Part shown: positions 6,382 through 29,737 of the stretch, one piece after another | Position numbering within the stretch: position 1 is the stretch's first letter | Layout of the letters: each line of letters starts with the position of its first letter | NCBI GenBank assembly: GCA_963807815.1 | Contig: CAWECW010000010.1 | Coordinates: forward strand, 33,214-97,213 | Direction of reading: 5' to 3' | From: an uncultured Alphaproteobacteria bacterium | GTDB lineage: Bacteria; Pseudomonadota; Alphaproteobacteria; Sphingomonadales; Sphingomonadaceae | Length of the DNA: 64,000 bases | Made by a program: the position numbers and the translations under genes | The notes under the pieces: model-generated | Told to the model about the DNA's origin: nothing | The model's database searches: none | Seen by the model: the letters and a program-made list of their open reading frames with translations, nothing else

Positions 6382-7311
6382 TTAGCCCTCGATGCCGGCC
6401 TTGCCCTTGGCGCGCGCCGACTTCGCCTGGTTCTTCGGATCGAGCGCGCCGGTCACGCGAACCTTGCGCTTCTCGCGTCGCCCAGATGTTCCGATACGCA
6501 AGATAGCCGAGAATGGTCGCGAACAGCAGGAAGACCACGACCGCGAGACCCGTCGCGTGGCGCTTCTCGAGCTTCGGCTCGGCGGTCCACACCAGGAACG
6601 CGGAGACATCCTTCGCCATCTGGTCGACCGTCGGCGCCGGATTGCCGGGCGCGTAGGTCACCTGCCCGTCGGCCGTCAGCGGCGGCGGCATGGCGAGGTT
6701 CAGGTTCGGGAAGTAGGGATTGTAGTACAGGCCCTTCGGCGTCTTCGCCGCCGGGAACTTCTTCAGCAGTTCCGCCGGCTGCTGCTTCTCGTAACCGGTC
6801 AGCAGCGAATAGACGTAGGCCGCGCCGTCATGACGGGCCTTGGTCATCAGCGACAGGTCAGGCGGAAGCGCATTGTTGTTCGCCGCGCGCGCCGCAATTT
6901 CGTTCGCGTAGGGCGACGGGAAGCGGTCGGCCGGAAGCGCCTTGCGGGTCGCCGGCTCGCCGGTTTCCGGGTTGGTGGTCGGAACCTCGATCGGCCACTG
7001 ATTGGCGATCGCCTTCACTTCGGCCTCGTTGTAGCCGAGCGCCTCGAGGTCGCGGAACGCGACCAGGCTCAGGCCGTGACAGGCCGCGCAGACTTCCTTG
7101 TAGACCTGGAAGCCGCGCTGGAGCTGCTTGCGGTCGAACTTGCCGAAGGCGCCGTCGCTGGCGAGCGCCAGTTCCTTCGGATGATGGTGGAACTCTTCCT
7201 CGGCGGTCGGCTCGGGCGGGCTTGTAGAGGTCGAACGTTGTTGAAGAACGAGATCAGCAGCACCACCGAGAAGACGGCGCCGACCAAGCCCATGAAGATC
7301 CGAAGAAGCAT
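6382..7311 (-). CDS. petC: Cytochrome c1
   Basis: [41 protein letters not shown]-terminal TM anchor. Confidence 0.95.
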
Positions 7312-19394: not shown

Positions 19395-20061
19395 ATGTCG
19401 TGGACTGAAGAGCGGATCGATCGCCTGAAGGCGATGTGGACGGAAGGCGCAACCGCCAGCCAGATTGCCGACGAGCTTGGCGGGGTCAGCCGCAACGCCG
19501 TGATCGGCAAGGCGCACCGCCTCGGCCTGGAGGCTCGCCCGTCGCCGGTGAAAGCCGGCGAGGAGAAGGAACGCCCCGCACCGGCAGCGTCCGCGCCCAA
19601 GCCGGCCCCGGCCGAGCGCGCGGCGCCCGAAGCCTGCCGCACCGCTGCCGCCGCCGCCGCAGCGCCGGAACGCGCGGCTCCCGCCCATCCTCCGCGCACT
19701 CCGCAGCGTACCCCGTCCGAGAATATCCAGTATCGCTCGATCGGGCCCGGCGGCTTCATCCGCCAGGGTCCGGGCGATCAGCAGCCGCCGATCCCGCCCG
19801 CTCCGCCGCGCCGCCTCGTTCCGGCGAAGCCGAGCCCGGAAGTCGCCGACAAGACGAGCCTGCTCGAGCTCAACGACCGCATCTGCAAATGGCCGATGGG
19901 CCATCCGGGCGAGCCCGACTTCCACTTCTGCGGCAATGCCTTCGAACCCCGGCTTCCCTTATTGCGTCCAGCATTGCGGCGTCGCCTATCAGGCGCAGCT
20001 TCCGCGCCGCGACCGCCGTCCGCCTCCGCCGCTTCCGTTCGGCGGCCCGCGCGTTCGCTAG
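19395..20061 (+). CDS. gcrA: GcrA cell-cycle regulator
   Basis: MSWTEERIDRLK...GGVSRNAVIGKAHRLGL; CKWPMGHP..FHFCG. Confidence 0.95.
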
Positions 20062-22788
20062 ACTCTCGAAGGAACTGCGCTCAACGCCGATCTCGCACGA
20101 CGCCGGCCAGGCCGGCTCGTCGGCGAGCGGAATGTGATTCTCGCTGTCGAGCAGCGACGAAGCTTCGCGCCCTTGATGCCTCGCCGCCATCTCCTCCGAG
20201 CAGGCAGCGGCGGATGATTGCGGTCGCTGTTTGCTGTGCATGATCAGCGTCGGCGCGCGGATCTTCGCGAGCTCCTCGCGCAGGTCGAGGATCCGGAACA
20301 CGTCCTGAAGGGCCTCGCTCAGCACGCTGATCGGTACCCAGCCGATCGCCTGAACCAGTCGATCATCTTCGCCGCCGGCCGATGGCCAGTAGAGCGCGCC
20401 GAACATCTCGCGCGAAGGATAGCCGGTCGCTCGATGCATAGCCGCGGCCAAGCTCGAGCAGCGTCTCGCGCCGCTGCGACCTCTTCGGGATCGCCGCGAA
20501 CGCCGAAACCCGCGGCATAGCCGCCGACCAGCACCAGCTTGCGCACCCGCTCCGGATATCGCGCCGCATAGGCCATCGCGACGAGCACGCCGTGCGACAT
20601 GCCAAGTACGTCGAACTGCTCGCACCCCCGCAGCGTCAACCACCGCGATAAGATCGTCGAGCAAGGCGTCGAAGTCCCAACGCGGCGGGTCGTGGTCCGA
20701 CAGGCCGAAGCCGCGGAAATCGCGTTCGGAGCAGGCTGTTGCCCCGCGTCACTTCGGCCATCCAGTGGCCCCAGGTCGGGTGTCGTCAGGTCCTTCTGCG
20801 ACGTGATGAAACCAGACGGCCGGCATGACGATGCGGATCGCCCTCGCCCGCCGATGGAATAACCGATCTTCGTGCCGTCCGCCGACTTGCAGGTGCCGAG
20901 TCTCGCTCACTCGTCTTCACCTGCGCCAGCGCCGGCGATCGAAGGGCGTCGTCCGTCCGCGCCGAGGAACTGGCGCGTGAGCCGGACGAAGGATCGGCCA
21001 GGCCGGCTCCTTCTCCAGCAGGATATGGTTCTCGCCCTCCAGCGGCACGAAGGTCGCGCCCGGGAATGTGCTTGCGCCAGATATTCGCCCGCCGCGAACG
21101 GGACGACCTGGTCGTCCCTCGAATGGAAGATGAGCGTCGGCACGCTCACCTTCGGCAGCAGGTCGCAGACGTCGATCTGCGACAGCGCGCGCTGCAGCTT
21201 CACCGCATTCTCGGGCGAGCAGCTCACGCCGCTGCATCTCGTTCCACCAGCTCGATCTGCTCGGCCGTGCCCTCGGGGATGTAGAGGCTGGTGAAGAGCT
21301 GGCGGTAGGTCGGGTGGTCGGCGCCCCAGCCGACCTCCGTCAGCGTGAGCATCGCCTCGCGACGCGCGATCTCCTCGGGATTGCCGCGCGCCGCCCAGCC
21401 CTGCGCATAGCCGCCGACAATCAGCAGCCTGCGCACCTTCTCCGGATGCCGCACGGCATAAGCGATCGCCACCGACGCGCCCTGGCTGATGCCGAGCAGG
21501 TCGAACTTCTCGACGCCCGGCGCAATCGACCACGCATTCCAGGTCGTCGACGAACGCCTCGAACGAAATTTCCGGCGTGTCCCAGTCGGACAGGCCGTTG
21601 GCGCGCTCGTCGTAGCGGATCAGCGTGTGGCCGTCGCGTGAACTCCTGCAGCCAGTGCCGCCAGACCGGGCTCTTCCAGTCATGCTCGATATGGTTGAGC
21701 CAGTTGGCGGCCTTCACCAGCGGCGGCCCCTCGCCAACCACCGAAAAGGCCAGCCGCGTCCCGTCCTTCGCCGTGCAGTAGCGGACGACCTGCTGCGGCA
21801 GGCCCGGTCGCTGCGCTCTCGCGAGCTCTTCGCCTGCTCTTCGACGCTGCCGCCGCCAGGTCGCGGGCGGCTCGCCATATTCGCGCTTGAACGCGCGGTT
21901 GAACGCGGCCTCGCGAGTTGAAGCCGACGGAATAAGCGACGTTCGACGCATTCTGCTTGCCGTCGCGAAGCATGTTCGCCGCCACGCGCATCCGCCAGCG
22001 CGCGCAATAGCGCATCGGCGGCTCGCCGATCAGCTCGGCGAAGCGCTCGCCCGAGCACGGTGCGCGAAACGCCCGCCTCCCGCGCGAGCGTCTCGATGTC
22101 GAGCTCTTCGGCATAGCGGCTGTGGATGATCGACAGCGCCTTGGCGACTGCCGGGTCCTTGAGACCGCCGAGCCAGCCGCCCTCGCCCGGCAGCAGTCGG
22201 TCCATGTAGCGGCGGATCGCCTGGGCGAAGAACAGCTCCGCCAGCCGCGCGACCAGCTCCGGCGAATTGCTCGCCTCGTTGAGCATGCGCATCGAAGTTT
22301 CGAGCCAGTCGCCGTGGGCGTCGTCGCCGCCGTCGAGCTTCAGTATACGGCGGCAAGCTGTCGAGCAGCGGATGATCGCTCGGCCGACGACGCCGAGGAA
22401 GCCGCATACATACTTCGGCTTCTTCGCCGCCGTGATCGATCACGAGTGCGCGCCGGCCCGTGCGGGCGCCTGCTGGATGAGATCGTGGGAGTCGACCGGC
22501 GGCAGCCCCGGCCGGCTGTACAGCAGATGCGGGTCGTTGCGCGGCAGCAGGATGATGTCGCCCGGCCTTAGCTGCGATCGGCAGTTCCCCGTCGACTCGA
22601 CGCGATCAGACCTTGCCCGACCGGACGTAATGATAGCTGATCAGCTCGTCCGGCGCGGGGTAGAAGGGCGCGCAATCGCTCGTCGCGTGAACCGGCGACA
22701 GACGCAGAAGTCGCCGCTGGACTCGGCGTCGATGACCACGCCGCCGGTCAGGCGAAGCGATCCCAGATATGTCCGTCAAAACGTCCAT
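20058..22788 (-). CDS. Cupin-AraC transcriptional regulator fused to alpha/beta-hydrolase domain(s); second hydrolase (20058-20905) fused or translationally coupled
   Basis: MDVLTDI...LRLTGGV cupin N-terminus; AFNRAFKREYGEPPATWRR continues in frame into LPQQVVRYCTAKDGTRLAF; GISQG/GENHIL and GMSHG/SENHIP motifs. Confidence 0.78.
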
Positions 22789-22813
22789 GGAGGCCCCGCT
22801 GCGCAGCCGTATG

Positions 22814-22849
22814 CGGCGTTTCGATCAAGTTATCCGGCAAGCCGGTCAA
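22814..22849 (+). promoter_or_regulatory. Tandem putative AraC half-sites (21-bp period)
   Basis: CGGCGTTTCGATCAA (22814) and CGGCAAGCCGGTCAA (22835) in the divergent intergenic region. Confidence 0.5.
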
Positions 22850-22975
22850 TTTTGGCAAACGCGCGCGTTGAGCTAGAGACTGGTCATCACATCGCAGGGA
22901 CCGAACAGCGACTTCGGAAGCACCGCTTCCGGGGAGCGGGACACTCTGTGCCTTAAAAATCAAAGGGAAATCGAA

Positions 22976-23090
22976 ATGAAGCAATTCGAAAAGGAACTGC
23001 GTGCGCGAAGCGCGGTCGTCATGTTCTTCGCCGTTCTTTCCGGTGTCTCTGCGGTCGCGACTGCGGTCCTGCCGGCATTGTCCACGCCTA
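22976..23090 (+). CDS. Small hydrophobic peptide (~38-52 aa)
   Basis: RBS AAAGGGA; MKQFEKELRARSAVVMFFAVLSGVSAVATAVLPA...; stop uncertain (TAA ~23090 after an indel, or TGA 23134). Confidence 0.5.
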
Positions 23091-23111
23091 AGTCAAAAAG
23101 AGGAAACGACC

Positions 23112-24026
23112 ATGTATCACGACTTCAATTATGAGGCGACGCTGGCGTCGTCGCTGCGGGCCGCAGTGGCAGCTCGACGACGTGCTGCGCGAGGACCAGG
23201 AGCTCGACTTCAGCCGCAACTTCCTGCCGGAGAGCCTGGCGCGCACGGCCGCGCTCGAGCGGCCTCAACGCCTTCGAGCAGCAGACCCTGAACCAGATCG
23301 CCGCGCACCAATATCTGTGCATGTTCGGGGTGGTGGAGGAGTTCATCCTCCCCTTCCTCGCTCGACCATGCCCGGCCGCAGCTGCGCGACGACGACTGGC
23401 GCGTCCGCGCTCTGCTCAACTTCGCGAGCGAGGAAGCCAAGCACATCCATTTGTTCAAGCGCTTCCACGCGGCGTTCGTGCGGGGCTTCCCGGTCGAGTG
23501 CCAGATGATCGGCCCGTCCGAAGCGATCGGCGCCGAAGATCCTCCGCCACGATCCGCTCGCGGTCGGCCTCGTCATCCTGATGATCGAGTGGATGACCCA
23601 GCAGCATTACCTCGGCAGCATCCGCGACGACGGCGACATCGACCCGCTCTTCAAGAGCCTGCTGAAGCATCACTGGATCGAGGAATCGCAGCACGCCAAG
23701 CTCGACACTTTGATCGTCGATGCGCTGGCCGAAGGGCCGCACCGAAGCCGAGATCGACAAGGCGATCGACGAGTTCTTCGAGATCGGCGACGTTCCTCGA
23801 CGGCGGCCTCAAGGCCCAGGCCGGCGTTCAACCTCGACGCGCTCGAGAAGGTGATCGGCCGCACAGCTCGACGAACCGCGAGGAGATCGAGGCGCAGCAG
23901 CACCAGGCCGCGCGCTGGACCTTCATCGGTTCCGGAATGGTCCACGAGCGCTTCAAGGCGACGCTCGAGAGCATCTCGCCCAAGGCCGCCGCCCGCCTGG
24001 CGGAAGCCGCGCCGATCTTCGCCTGA
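23112..24026 (+). CDS. Ferritin-like diiron oxygenase, AurF/CmlI-like (frameshifted)
   Basis: VEEF...SEEAKH...MIEW...HHWIEESQH, i.e. E, ExxH, E, HxxxExxH ligand pattern. Confidence 0.78.
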
Positions 24027-24053
24027 ACACTCATCAACCCAAGGAGAATAATC

Positions 24054-24616
24054 ATGTTGGACACCGTCAAGAATGCGCCCGTCAACGGCCTCGACCTCGC
24101 CGCTCTCGGCGAAGTCGTCGAAGCGATCGAAAAGGACGCTCGCAAGGCCATGGTCGGCTTCGACGTCATCACCCGCTGGAAGGGCCAGACCCGCAGCGAG
24201 ACGATCGTCGACGGCTTCACCATGGCCGGCGAGCGCATCGAGCGCAGCCACACGATCGTCGCCGACGAGCCGTGCGAACTGCTCGGCGCCGACAGCGCGC
24301 CGAACCCGCAGGAGCTGCTGATGGCGGCGTTCAACGCCTGCATCACGGTCGGCTATGTCGCCGGCGCTGCGCTCAAGGGCATCAAGCTCGAATCGCTCGA
24401 GATCCGCACCCGCGGCGAGCTCGACCTGCGCGGCTTCCTCGGCCTCAGCGACCCGTCCCGCCGGGCTACGAGAACGTCGACTATGAAGTCCGCATCAAGG
24501 GCGACGGATCGCCGGCGGATTTCGAGGAAATCCACCAGACGGTCATGAAGACCTCGCCCAACTACTTCAACATGAGCCGTCCGATCAAAATGAACGGCAC
24601 GCTCAGCGTCGCCTGA
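24054..24616 (+). CDS. OsmC/Ohr family protein
   Basis: ADEPCELLGADSAPNPQELLMAAFNAC, LDLRGFLG, TSPN. Confidence 0.88.
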
Positions 24617-24624
24617 CGCAACAC

Positions 24625-24655
24625 TCGGCGCCGCGACAGTCGCGCGCGGCGCCGA
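24625..24655 (+). other. Intercistronic GC-rich hairpin
   Basis: TCGGCGCCGCG...CGCGGCGCCGA, no U tail. Confidence 0.55.
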
Positions 24656-24685
24656 CCGTTTCGAACTCAAAGGGGAATTGAACGA

Positions 24686-25527
24686 ATGGCCGATCTCGGC
24701 ATCCAAAAGATCAATCCGAACAAGGCGCTGTGGGAAAAGGGCGACTTCACCCGGATCGCCGAAACCATGCGCCAAAGCGGCGAGGACCTCGTCGAGACGC
24801 TTCGGCATCGAACCGCGGCATGAAAGTGCTCGACCTCGGCTGCGGCGACGGCACGACGGCGCTGCCGGCCGCGCGGCGCGGCGCGCGAAGTGCTCGGCGT
24901 CGACATCGCCTCGAATCTCGTCGCCGCGGGCAATGACGCGCGCGAAGGCGGCCGGTCTCGACAATCTGCGCTTCCAGCAAGGCGACGCGTCGAACCTCAA
25001 CCGGCATCGCCGACGACAAGTTCGACCTCGTCGTCAGCATCTTCGGCGCGATGTTCGCGCCGCGGCCCGTTCGACGTCGCGGAAGAGATGGTCCGCGTCA
25101 CCAAGCCGGGCGGGCGGATCGTCATGGGCAATTGGATTCCCGGCGACCCGACCCTGGTCGCGCAGATCCTGAAGATCAGCGCGGCCTACACGCCGCCTCC
25201 GCCGGAGGGCTTCGTCAGCCCGATGACCTGGGGCGACGAGGGCAAGGTCCGCGAGCGCTTCGAAGCCGCCGGCATCGAGCCGGAGAACATCGGCTTCGAA
25301 CGGGCGACCTGGTTCTTCCGCGGCGACGGTCCGCCGTCCGAACTGCTCGGCGATCTTCCGCAACTATTACGGCCCGACGATGAACGCCTTCGAGGCGGCA
25401 GCGAAGGACGGCCGCGAAGAGCAACTCGCAGCGGAGCTGACGCGATCTGTTCAACGCCCAGAACAAGGGCGGCGACCGCACCGAAATCCCCGCAACCTTC
25501 CTCAAGGTGACCGTCAGGAAAGCCTGA
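24686..25527 (+). CDS. Class I SAM-dependent methyltransferase (frameshifted)
   Basis: NKALWEKGDFTRIA, VLDLGCGDG, VDIA, FDLVVSIFGAMFAP, RVTKPGGRI. Confidence 0.9.
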
Positions 25528-25559
25528 TCGCGCACCCAAGACATCAGGACAAACGACAA

Positions 25560-25955
25560 GTGGAACACGCAGTCAAAGTACCAGCCGACCGTCACGTTGA
25601 ACGCCGTTTCGAACGGCGCCGGCCGCTCCTGCGGCTCGTGAAGCCCGCATCGCCGCATTCGCGCGCCGCAACGCGGTTCGCCGAGACCTGCGCGGCGATC
25701 GGCGGAACGACCATGCTTCACGACCTGATGCCGGACGTCGTCACGATCAGCTTCGGCTCCAGGACCGACGCGATCAGCCAGCGCCTGCGCAGCCGCGGCT
25801 GGGATTTCGTCGGCACCGGCGACTGGCAGGGCGAGCGCGTGCTCGGCGTGTCCTTCGCCGGCGACCGCCGCGCGAACCGGACTGCGGACGACCTTGCCGA
25901 CGCCCTGATCGCGGTCGTCGGCGAGCTGGAGATTGCCGAAACACGAACCTGGTAA
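25560..25955 (+). CDS. Hypothetical protein resembling the C-terminal small domain of fold-type I PLP decarboxylases
   Basis: RBS AGGA plus GTG; AATRFAETCAAIGGTTMLHDLMPDVVTISFG...DFVGTGDWQGERVLGVSF. Confidence 0.55.
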   Translation: MEHAVKVPADRHVERRFERRRPLLRLVKPASPHSRAATRFAETCAAIGGTTMLHDLMPDVVTISFGSRTDAISQRLRSRGWDFVGTGDWQGERVLGVSFAGDRRANRTADDLADALIAVVGELEIAETRTW

Positions 25956-26003: not shown

Positions 26004-26042
26004 AAAGGCCCCGGAGCACCAAAGCTCCGGGGCCTTTTTCTT
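26004..26042. terminator. Bidirectional rho-independent terminator
   Basis: AAAGGCCCCGGAGC-ACCAAA-GCTCCGGGGCCTTTTT between convergent genes. Confidence 0.88.
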
Positions 26043-28779: not shown

Positions 28780-29737
28780 CTACGTGAGACTCGGAACCCG
28801 TTGCCGGATCCACCGGCTGGCGATGAATTTTTGACCCGCTTCGACCGGGTCACCGGCGTGCTGAGAATTGGGATCGGGCCGGCCCTGGTCGTCGGCATTG
28901 CGGAACAGCAAAGCGTCGCCCTTGCGTCCACTCACGGCCAGGTTGCTTCTCATGAACCGTGTCCCCCCGCCCTCGTAGCCGTCGTTCAGATAGACGAGGA
29001 ACGTGAGAATTCGCTGGTTGTCGGTTTCGCCCAAGGCGTCGAAATGCGGGCGGTATTCCTGCCCGGGAAGATAGCGGAGGACCTGCAACGGCTCCCCTTG
29101 CTTGACGCTTGTCCCGCTCGCCCGGGCCAGCCGTGCGCACAAGGCATGAATGGCGGGACTTTCGGCGATGAGCGAAAAAGCGGCAGCATCCGATGTGCGG
29201 ACTGGGTTCGCGGTCAATTTCCCCGTGACGGGATCGACCACTTTCGACGGCTGGAGGAGCGGAAGGGCGGCCTCCACCAGGAAATCGCATTCGTCATCGC
29301 TGAACAGCGAGGGGAAGACGGTCACCTCAGGCGAGTTCGAGACTCGTTCGGAAGCGAAGGCACCGAGAGGCTCGCCGCTGTCCGACAATTGCATGAGACT
29401 CGATGAGCTCGAGTTCACGTTTGGCGGATGGGTCGCGAGACGAATCCTCGGCAAGGAGTTGGACGGCCGCTGGCCAATCGGCAGGCGCCCCGGTCCCATT
29501 TGCAACGAATGCACGAAAAGCGGCCGCGCCTTCGAGGCTCCCGGCGCTCGACGCTCGGCGGAACAAGTCTCGGGAAAGCGCGAGATCGCGCCGGACGAAA
29601 TCGCCGGCGAGCGCGAGGTGGCCGAGCGCGCTCAGCGCATCGGCATCGTCCTGCTTCGCGGCCTCGGCCAGCAGGCTGAGACCTTCCTGAATGCGTCCTG
29701 CGTCCAGCAGGGATCGGGCGTGATGAACATCGATCAT
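28780..29737 (-). CDS. 2OG-Fe(II) oxygenase, prolyl 4-hydroxylase-like, with N-terminal Sel1/TPR-like region
   Basis: VRTS, GEPLQVLRYLPGQEYRPHFD, LVYLN..EGGGT.F, HAGDPV..G.K. Confidence 0.88.

Follow-up and report, generated by a model that had tools for sequence, protein, structure and literature searches.

Between gcrA and hsp20, in a stretch of DNA of 64,000 nucleotides (hereafter, the window) from an uncultured alphaproteobacterium of the Sphingomonadaceae, lies a cassette (positions 20058..25955) that, judged from its sequence, is separately regulated and is built around a recurring core composed of a Cupin_6-AraC regulator, a ferritin-like diiron protein and a one-cysteine OsmC protein. 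We tentatively read this cassette as an inducible system that detoxifies reactive sulfur species or small thiols, and not as one for natural-product synthesis, a reading that we consider a little short of probable. It is suggested by three observations, namely that the methyltransferase MddA is found in the methyltransferase slot of related cassettes and behind the same operator, that the OsmC protein is of the AltJ type, and that a TGA codon stands at the column of its Cys96 in other genomes.

The cassette and its reference locus

Contig C10, which carries the window, belongs to a 2.58-Mb genome that is 62% complete and whose closest named relatives are Sphingomicrobium and Sphingomonas records. 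A sequence-only reading of this DNA had placed a regulator, with AraC and hydrolase parts, divergent from a small operon between gcrA and hsp20, and every part that it named was found at its place there. The features are as follows.

20058..22788, minus strand: regulator with Cupin_6, an AraC helix-turn-helix (HTH) and two LipJ-like alpha/beta-hydrolase domains; about 900 amino acids (aa) in clean relatives, with many insertions or deletions (indels) here
22812..22858, plus strand: tandem direct-repeat operator, 21-bp spacing, half-site consensus CCGGC-N4-CGRTCA; putative binding site
22850..22879, plus strand: predicted activator-dependent sigma-70 promoter, with the conserved TA of the -10 near 22874
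22976..23091, plus strand: conserved hydrophobic peptide of 38 aa, with a strong ribosome-binding site; the assembly lacks one of its bases
23112..24026, plus strand: ferritin-like diiron protein of the AurF/CmlI fold, ligands E75, E107, H110, E158, H186, E190 and H193 (L020 numbering)
24054..24616, plus strand: one-cysteine OsmC of the AltJ-type clade, with C96 and the resolving Cys replaced by Ser168
24617..24663, plus strand: intergenic hairpin at the border of core and accessory genes, weak in the window (z -1.55)
24686..25527, plus strand: accessory class I S-adenosylmethionine (SAM) methyltransferase, 277 aa in relatives, in some of which MddA fills the slot
25560..25955, plus strand: accessory 131-aa open reading frame (ORF), a small domain of group II pyridoxal phosphate (PLP) decarboxylases plus the C-terminal tail of a sphingomonad family of ORFs of about 63 aa
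26004..26043, both strands: strong bidirectional intrinsic terminator with 14-bp arms, common to hsp20

In this assembly, one-base indels interrupt each long gene of the cassette. Measured against the related locus L016, the diiron, methyltransferase and regulator genes carried 8.8, 9.5 and 11.4 frame-breaking indels per kb, and the essential gene parE 8.1; hsp20 had none against L016 or L017, and argD none against L017, the sole comparison covering part of that gene. Since parE is broken at a similar rate, the frameshifts are most likely errors of sequencing or assembly, and pseudogenisation of the cassette was ruled out on the same ground. Because the window genes are broken, the intact orthologous locus of Sphingomonas daechungensis (L020) was used as the reference, and the window sequence was left unmended. 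In L020 the gene order between gcrA and hsp20 is that of the window, and the products are a 900-aa regulator, a 301-aa AurF-family protein, a 187-aa OsmC, a 277-aa methyltransferase that is class I by domain match, and a short last ORF. Domain matches in this clean locus verified the listed parts (AurF-type diiron protein, OsmC and SAM methyltransferase), and the self-contained unit, as had been claimed, holds no scaffold synthase.

Recurrence and make-up of the diiron-OsmC core

Gene neighbourhoods were counted by profile or tblastn searches, not from gene calls. When loci were anchored on OsmC, the diiron gene was adjacent in 74 of 80, these loci being mostly from sphingomonads and not independent of one another. 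In a draw of 101 genomes centred on a Rokubacteria record, the close OsmC type was present in four, and adjoined the diiron gene in all four. When 59 diiron proteins were placed on a quick tree, the adjacency required 10 changes, 5 of which are forced by strong branches; the pair occurs in three deep diiron clades and in either gene order, and at one locus of the Acidobacteria draw (L136) the diiron gene is paired with an OsmC of another subclade. Furthermore, six full-length proteins of 492-522 aa (P0132, P0140 and P0271-P0274), two of them named Polyangiaceae/Polyangiales, are diiron-OsmC fusions. A read-through artefact is an unlikely source of these, since several are full-length, at 41-57% identity to the first, and one was found on 4 contigs, though some linkers still resemble old start sites; that the linkers differ suggests more than one fusion event. 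A predicted complex of two OsmC chains, one diiron chain and 2 Fe scored 0.00 against a mark of 0.32, which we regard as neutral. In the sequencing runs searched, at most 0.18 of the sequence words were present, and contigs from four RNA libraries, matched at 82% likeness, bridge the peptide-diiron, diiron-OsmC and OsmC-methyltransferase borders in relatives, which is proof neither of transcription nor of a single transcript. The literature searched, outside which most subscription papers lie, yielded no report of an OsmC-AurF pairing or fusion; co-mentions of OsmC with diiron and ferritin-like proteins were unrelated in those checked, as far as the accessible parts of these papers go. Nor did this literature hold a described pathway matching the combination, in line with what the sequence-only reading had stated.

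The genes downstream of OsmC are far less constant. At 67 of the 80 loci there is at least 1.5 kb of sequence beyond OsmC, and there the class I methyltransferase was found in 19, MddA in 4 and the PLP-domain ORF in 7, with both the methyltransferase and the PLP ORF limited to Sphingomicrobium-like genomes. The complete five-gene set was seen at no more than 5 of the 80 loci, one of which has a whole decarboxylase instead of the fragment. Co-conservation across genomes therefore holds for the regulator-diiron-OsmC core and fails for the full set. As the accessory genes and the set occur in a minority of loci, we see in the five genes together a lineage-specific state of a core whose cargo can be exchanged; these counts, and the missing cofactor domain of the PLP ORF, do not support the proposal of one sensing-plus-tailoring pathway made of all five genes.

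In clean orthologues, the diiron protein matches PF11583 (AurF) at 36.7 and 38.2 bits, above the gathering cut-off of 29.6. Its structure model (pLDDT 94) was compared with known folds using Foldseek, with re-alignment of the matches. The top matches were CmlI and AurF (Z 19.9; root-mean-square deviation (rmsd) 3.7 and 3.9 over 265 and 275 residues, at 14% and 10% identity), and the next fold family was R2lox (Z 16.2). Across 325 homologues the ligands are retained in 312 (E75), 306 (E107), 307 (H110), 314 (E158), 310 (H186), 306 (E190) and 311 (H193), and His164 (323/325) and Tyr67 (321/325) are as conserved. The protein shares with the AurF/CmlI arylamine N-oxygenases (PF11583; PDB 2JCD, 3CHH, 5HYH) their fold and their seven-ligand pattern of three His and four carboxylates, E...ExxH...E...HxxxExxH. 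It differs from them in its sequence (10-14% identity), in the extra conserved His164, and in being paired or fused with OsmC, without biosynthetic scaffold genes. PDB sequence searches with the protein or its profile returned no AurF-type entry. The N-oxygenation that the sequence-only reading attributed to this enzyme is not supported, its sole basis being the fold and ligand set.

The diiron subfamily comprises 364 clusters at 50% identity (E<=1e-30). The gene was present in 7 of 400 Pseudomonadota genomes and in 8/201 and 13/101 genomes of two further phylum draws, the first centred on a Terriglobia record and the second being the Rokubacteria draw; homologues also occur in Nostoc, Synechococcus, Planctomycetota and Polyangiales records, so that the distribution of the family is broad yet patchy. 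At three distant loci (L094, L140 and L152) a berberine-bridge-type flavin adenine dinucleotide (FAD) oxidase gene adjoins the diiron gene. On the non-sphingomonad contigs L252-L331, its commonest neighbours are genes for an extracytoplasmic function (ECF) sigma factor (16/80) and a Ser/Thr kinase (14/80).

The OsmC protein matches PF02566 at 55.6 bits. Its first, peroxidatic cysteine, C96, is invariant, and in all 27 aligned sequences Ser168 takes the place of the second, resolving cysteine of the peroxidase type, confirming the one-Cys assignment; in the wider OsmC subfamily, every row that covers this column has Ser. The same change at the second site is seen in the closest solved OsmC chain, 2OPL ('Hypothetical protein', E 5e-24), which we take to be GSU2788 and on which nothing was found in the literature searched. 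The protein shares its family and first catalytic Cys with the Ohr/OsmC organic hydroperoxide reductases, but, because it lacks the resolving Cys, the two-Cys cycle, as set out in the accessible part of PMC8346489, cannot run as such. In one draw, 2 of 18 matching genomes carry an in-frame TGA at the Cys96 column (L215 in G721 and L216 in G695). This codon likely specifies selenocysteine, which would make these two OsmC proteins selenoproteins, and because it stands at the Cys96 column in two genomes, Cys96 itself is likely to be redox-active.

Many of the closest plasmid-borne OsmC proteins are from Burkholderia. The OsmC of Paraburkholderia graminis PHS1 (NZ_CP024936.1) shows 51.7% identity to the window type over 176 aa and falls into one clade with it (SH-aLRT 98, 31/46 rows); its gene neighbours code for a C-S lyase, an alkene reductase, DsbA, CMD, TetR and a short-chain dehydrogenase/reductase (SDR). 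This cluster is named alt/TTG-like in the accessible parts of PMC12306174 and bioRxiv 2024.01.24.577064. Like the window cassette, the alt/TTG thiosulfinate-tolerance clusters, with the Burkholderia/Paraburkholderia AltJ, are small inducible redox clusters with a one-Cys OsmC. None of altR, altA, altB, altC, altE and altI was found in 20058-25955 on comparison with L247; in contrast to the alt/TTG clusters, the window cassette has no TetR, old yellow enzyme, SDR, DsbA, AhpD/CMD or C-S lyase, and in place of these genes it has an AraC activator, the diiron protein and a methyltransferase. In a sister clade of one-Cys OsmC proteins, the gene adjoins flavin monooxygenase-like (Pyr_redox_3) genes of about 410 aa at 8 loci (L231-L234, L240-L242 and L244), on account of which pairing with an oxygenase may be a general habit of one-Cys OsmC proteins. 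In the literature searched for OsmC together with a monooxygenase and 'single cysteine', no report was found. At L231, a PLP decarboxylase gene also lies upstream.

Regulator, operator and accessory genes

In L020 the regulator is one 900-aa protein with Cupin_6, HTH_18 and two Abhydrolase domains, which confirms the AraC-hydrolase regulator of the sequence-only reading and corrects it to two hydrolase domains. Related regulators have cupin and HTH only, one hydrolase domain or two, the first form accounting for 16 of 77 related genes at these loci, some of which are cut by contig ends. Elsewhere, regulators in which a hydrolase domain is joined to a Trans_reg_C or LuxR-type HTH domain also lie beside the diiron gene. 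Since cupin-HTH and hydrolase-fused regulators each accompany diiron cargo, the window regulator merges two sensor types. Both of its hydrolase domains have the nucleophile Ser (GISQG and GMSHG), and the domains of relatives keep the Ser-Asp-His triad of an active alpha/beta-hydrolase in large part (His 67/67, Asp 65/67, Ser 56/67); the replacement of Ser in 11 of 67 would be compatible with ligand sensing as well as with catalysis. A hydrolysable inducer, as first proposed, is weakened by these replacements and by the 16/77 regulators that do without hydrolase domains. The conserved polar residues of the regulator are His53, His86, Cys126 and Cys29.

Across 35 aligned intergenic regions, the direct repeat with its 21-bp spacing and the TA of the -10 are conserved, and the second half-site of the operator abuts a predicted weak -35. 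A consensus promoter scan of the window did not detect the sigma-70 promoter at 22850..22879, which is predicted from this conservation. A matrix trained on 34 intergenic regions, the window excluded, gave the window site a score of 51.8 against 10.6 for the next best in the whole 2.58-Mb genome, bearing out the tandem AraC-type sites noted earlier. The operator is present at sphingomonad loci with this AraC, untrained ones included. At two AraC loci of more remote relationship its scores were 16.4 and 27.5, and it was not found where other regulators face the diiron gene. The motif is clade-specific, because six distant Cupin_6 loci also score below zero. Loci of the Allosphingosinicella type, which have a response regulator and a PAS histidine kinase (L066, L070, L072, L074, L075, L079, L086, L088, L089 and L092), share another motif, TGTAACAATTGACACAAT-like, 5' of the diiron gene. 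The terminator at the end of the unit is also as had been claimed: at 26004-26037 it has 14-bp arms without a mismatch and a folding z of -5.2, and it serves the convergent hsp20 as well. At the position of the hairpin at 24617..24663, hairpins of differing sequence were found in 4 of 4 relatives folded.

The window-type methyltransferase falls below the cut-off of each of its best 25 NCBIfam models, and presumably resembles the mycobacterial Rv1403c/Rv1405c. In some relatives, a true MddA occupies the slot. MddA above its NCBIfam cut-off (NF045656) lies 3' of OsmC, and co-directional with it, at 5 of the 80 loci, one of them partial. It also follows OsmC where the diiron gene has been lost (L055 and L189, the latter having the order operator-OsmC-mddA), and the operator stands upstream of mddA without a diiron or OsmC gene at L195 (46.1), L014 (33.4) and L180 (20.4). 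In L014 and L180 the MddA protein is of a different subtype (66-69% identity to the resident L177 copy and 46-47% to the cassette copy), and mddA thus looks to have been recruited twice behind the operator; the regulator at these two loci is cupin-less, and no slot genes were seen within the 1.5-kb flanks. For these comparisons, 29 of the 30 best mddA loci from a genus draw of 201 genomes were analysed, L014 coming from a separate search. At 20 of the 29 (among L177-L204), mddA lies directly behind the suf operon, with an operator score of at most 7.9. MddA also adjoins the diiron gene in 2 of 80 non-sphingomonad metagenome contigs. No report treating mddA and OsmC together was found in the literature searched. 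An SBP56 gene near L078 scored 108 against the methanethiol-oxidase cut-off of 650 and was not counted.

The last ORF probably starts at 25560, giving 131 aa. It had no match in Pfam for the PLP small domain, but along 97 aa it is 42% identical to the C-terminal end of a whole Pyridoxal_deC gene in the matching slot of L065. Fold-type-I PLP enzymes make up nearly all of its best fold matches, none of them reaching E<=0.001; for 3K40 the rmsd is 2.0 over 95 columns (E 0.023). The orphan PLP-enzyme small domain of the sequence-only reading is thereby borne out, with a corrected start; a weak match to DUF6356 was dropped in favour of the decarboxylase match. As the large domain with the PLP-binding Lys is missing, the ORF cannot by itself be a PLP enzyme. 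It is conserved in 8 loci, with stand-alone look-alikes of 74-77 aa in the Atlas, and may have a small non-catalytic role; in the sulfur reading, the fragment would be a lineage-specific passenger. In one complete genome, the PLP small-domain ORF occurs once more at a site apart from the cassette (L171:4470-4772, G034). ORFs of about 63 aa, in two families, with an E-I-A-E-x-R-x-W-like tail and sometimes in tandem, occupy the slot before hsp20 at L021, L024-L035, L040, L042, L045, L048, L050, L060, L062, L063 and L065.

The peptide, present as the sequence-only reading had it, is 38 aa long and not 52. It was seen only at sphingomonad-type loci, where its place and length directly before the diiron gene are kept. 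At L039 and L044 (both about 6790-6965), ORFs of 58-65 aa between peptide and OsmC have ends resembling both ends of the diiron protein, and are likely remnants of an internal deletion of its gene. Beyond the cassette, after parE, an ORF at 28780-29514 on the minus strand resembles by eye a prolyl 4-hydroxylase-type 2-oxoglutarate-Fe(II) oxygenase.

Candidate functions

Were the cassette to dispose of thiols or reactive sulfur, its inducer would be a thiol or thiol-reactive sulfur compound (methanethiol, H2S or polysulfide, a disulfide, a thiosulfinate) or an oxidant, acting on the cupin through His53, His86, Cys126 and Cys29. The regulator would then activate the operon from the tandem site, with the hydrolase domains adding a second ligand input. 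Cys96 of OsmC would take up the sulfur group as a mixed disulfide or persulfide and, because it has no resolving Cys, OsmC would need a partner for turnover. The diiron protein might use O2 to oxygenate the sulfur species, or OsmC might serve to re-reduce it, and the methyltransferase, which is MddA in relatives and the class I enzyme in the window, could convert the free thiol to a methyl thioether. Both H2S and methanethiol are methylated by MddA, according to the accessible part of PMC12904073. That the diiron protein is specifically an AurF-fold sulfur oxygenase, with the one-Cys or selenocysteine OsmC as covalent substrate carrier or dedicated reductant, we consider unlikely as a detailed proposal. 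The inducible, self-contained response to a small molecule proposed in the sequence-only reading is supported, in a form narrowed to the diiron-OsmC core with swappable cargo.

Several findings weigh against the sulfur interpretation. The window methyltransferase is not MddA: it is a class I enzyme of 277 aa, longer than MddM1 and MddM2 (210 and 204 aa) of the MddA/MddH/MddM thiol S-methyltransferases, and mddA was not found with NF045656 in the 62%-complete source genome. As many genomes of the genus carry mddA (94 of 201, counting one unpublished genome that bears on no other claim), some of its linkage could be chance in a variable slot. When loci are anchored on the diiron gene, OsmC is adjacent in 5 of 28 from the phylum draws (1/8, 1/8 and 3/12, leaving out the centre genome and one partial locus) and in 10 of the 52 metagenome contigs that were informative. 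Outside the sphingomonads, the majority of diiron loci show ECF sigma/kinase, sigma-54 or two-component regulators and no sulfur gene. Close OsmC relatives also adjoin molybdo-oxidoreductases and SDRs. The solved enzymes with the AurF fold and ligand set oxidise arylamines. Finally, in a Pseudomonas allicin-resistance clone, no transposon insertion in osmC was recovered, going by the accessible part of PMC7119367.

A general defence against oxidants or electrophiles (HOCl, peroxides) on the RclR pattern, in which the regulator would sense through cysteines, OsmC would be a one-Cys peroxidase and the diiron protein would serve as a sink for peroxide or O2, none of them specially tied to sulfur compounds, is in our view unlikely, though it has several points in its favour. 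As in E. coli RclR-rclABC, a Cupin_6-AraC regulator is divergent from a small redox operon; the regulator is 25% identical to E. coli RclR, the Cys89 column is conserved in 56 of 56, the OsmC family is that of peroxidases, and oxidative stress also induces mddM genes (PMC12904073, accessible part). However, the Cys21 column is Gly/Ala in these regulators, the RclR model NF040475 gives 80.3 bits against a cut-off of 400, the window regulator is hydrolase-fused, and its cargo is unrelated to that of RclR. OsmC moreover lacks the resolving Cys of the peroxidase type, and a full AurF-size fold with a third His would suit substrate oxygenation better than peroxide scavenging.

Two further explanations we hold to be quite improbable. 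One is the earlier model, in which a hydrolysable molecule is sensed and then undergoes arylamine-type N-oxygenation and methylation, for detoxification or as a signal. The fold matches to CmlI and AurF, the seven conserved ligands, the triads kept in most hydrolase domains and the hydrolase-fused regulators of other types beside the diiron gene all fit such a model, whereas the 10-14% identity, the lack of a PDB sequence match to AurF, the absence of recurring aminobenzoate or non-ribosomal peptide synthetase genes, the accessory nature of the methyltransferase and the dispensable hydrolase domains do not. The other takes the gap between gcrA and hsp20 to be a variable slot in which stress genes have gathered under a single inducible promoter, with only diiron and OsmC coupled and no chemistry common to the remaining genes. 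The cargo does vary widely (class I methyltransferase, MddA, PLP decarboxylase, the ORFs of about 63 aa, or nothing), the class I methyltransferase follows gcrA without the cassette in L015, and the PLP ORF is remnant-like; against this, two mddA subtypes stand behind the operator, two loci (L014 and L180) combine it with a cupin-less regulator and no slot genes in their flanks, and mddA recurs beside the diiron gene in another lineage. A system akin to ribosomally synthesised and post-translationally modified peptides, with the 38-aa peptide as the substrate of the diiron enzyme, is suggested by the conserved place and length of that peptide but is very improbable, as the peptide persists where the diiron gene is deleted (L049 and L055), was not seen before it at the Rokubacteria/Methylomirabilota and Acidobacteria loci L077, L094, L136 and L145, has no conserved core residue, and is joined by no recurring protease or exporter at cassette loci; we infer that it is a lineage-specific passenger.

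This analysis defines an uncharacterised diiron subfamily with a recurrent and sometimes fused partner, for which a precise operator and a cultured carrier strain make inducer and substrate directly testable. If the detailed proposal of an AurF-fold sulfur oxygenase working with OsmC holds, one-Cys OsmC proteins would be a general partner module for oxygenases, and the cassette would constitute a new bacterial route for the disposal of methanethiol, sulfide or thiosulfinates and supply the first regulator for mddA. If the cassette does act on thiols or reactive sulfur, AltJ and other one-Cys OsmC proteins would gain a function, the chemistry of the AurF fold would reach beyond nitrogen to sulfur, and a regulator would be linked to mddA, a gene for dimethyl sulfide production.

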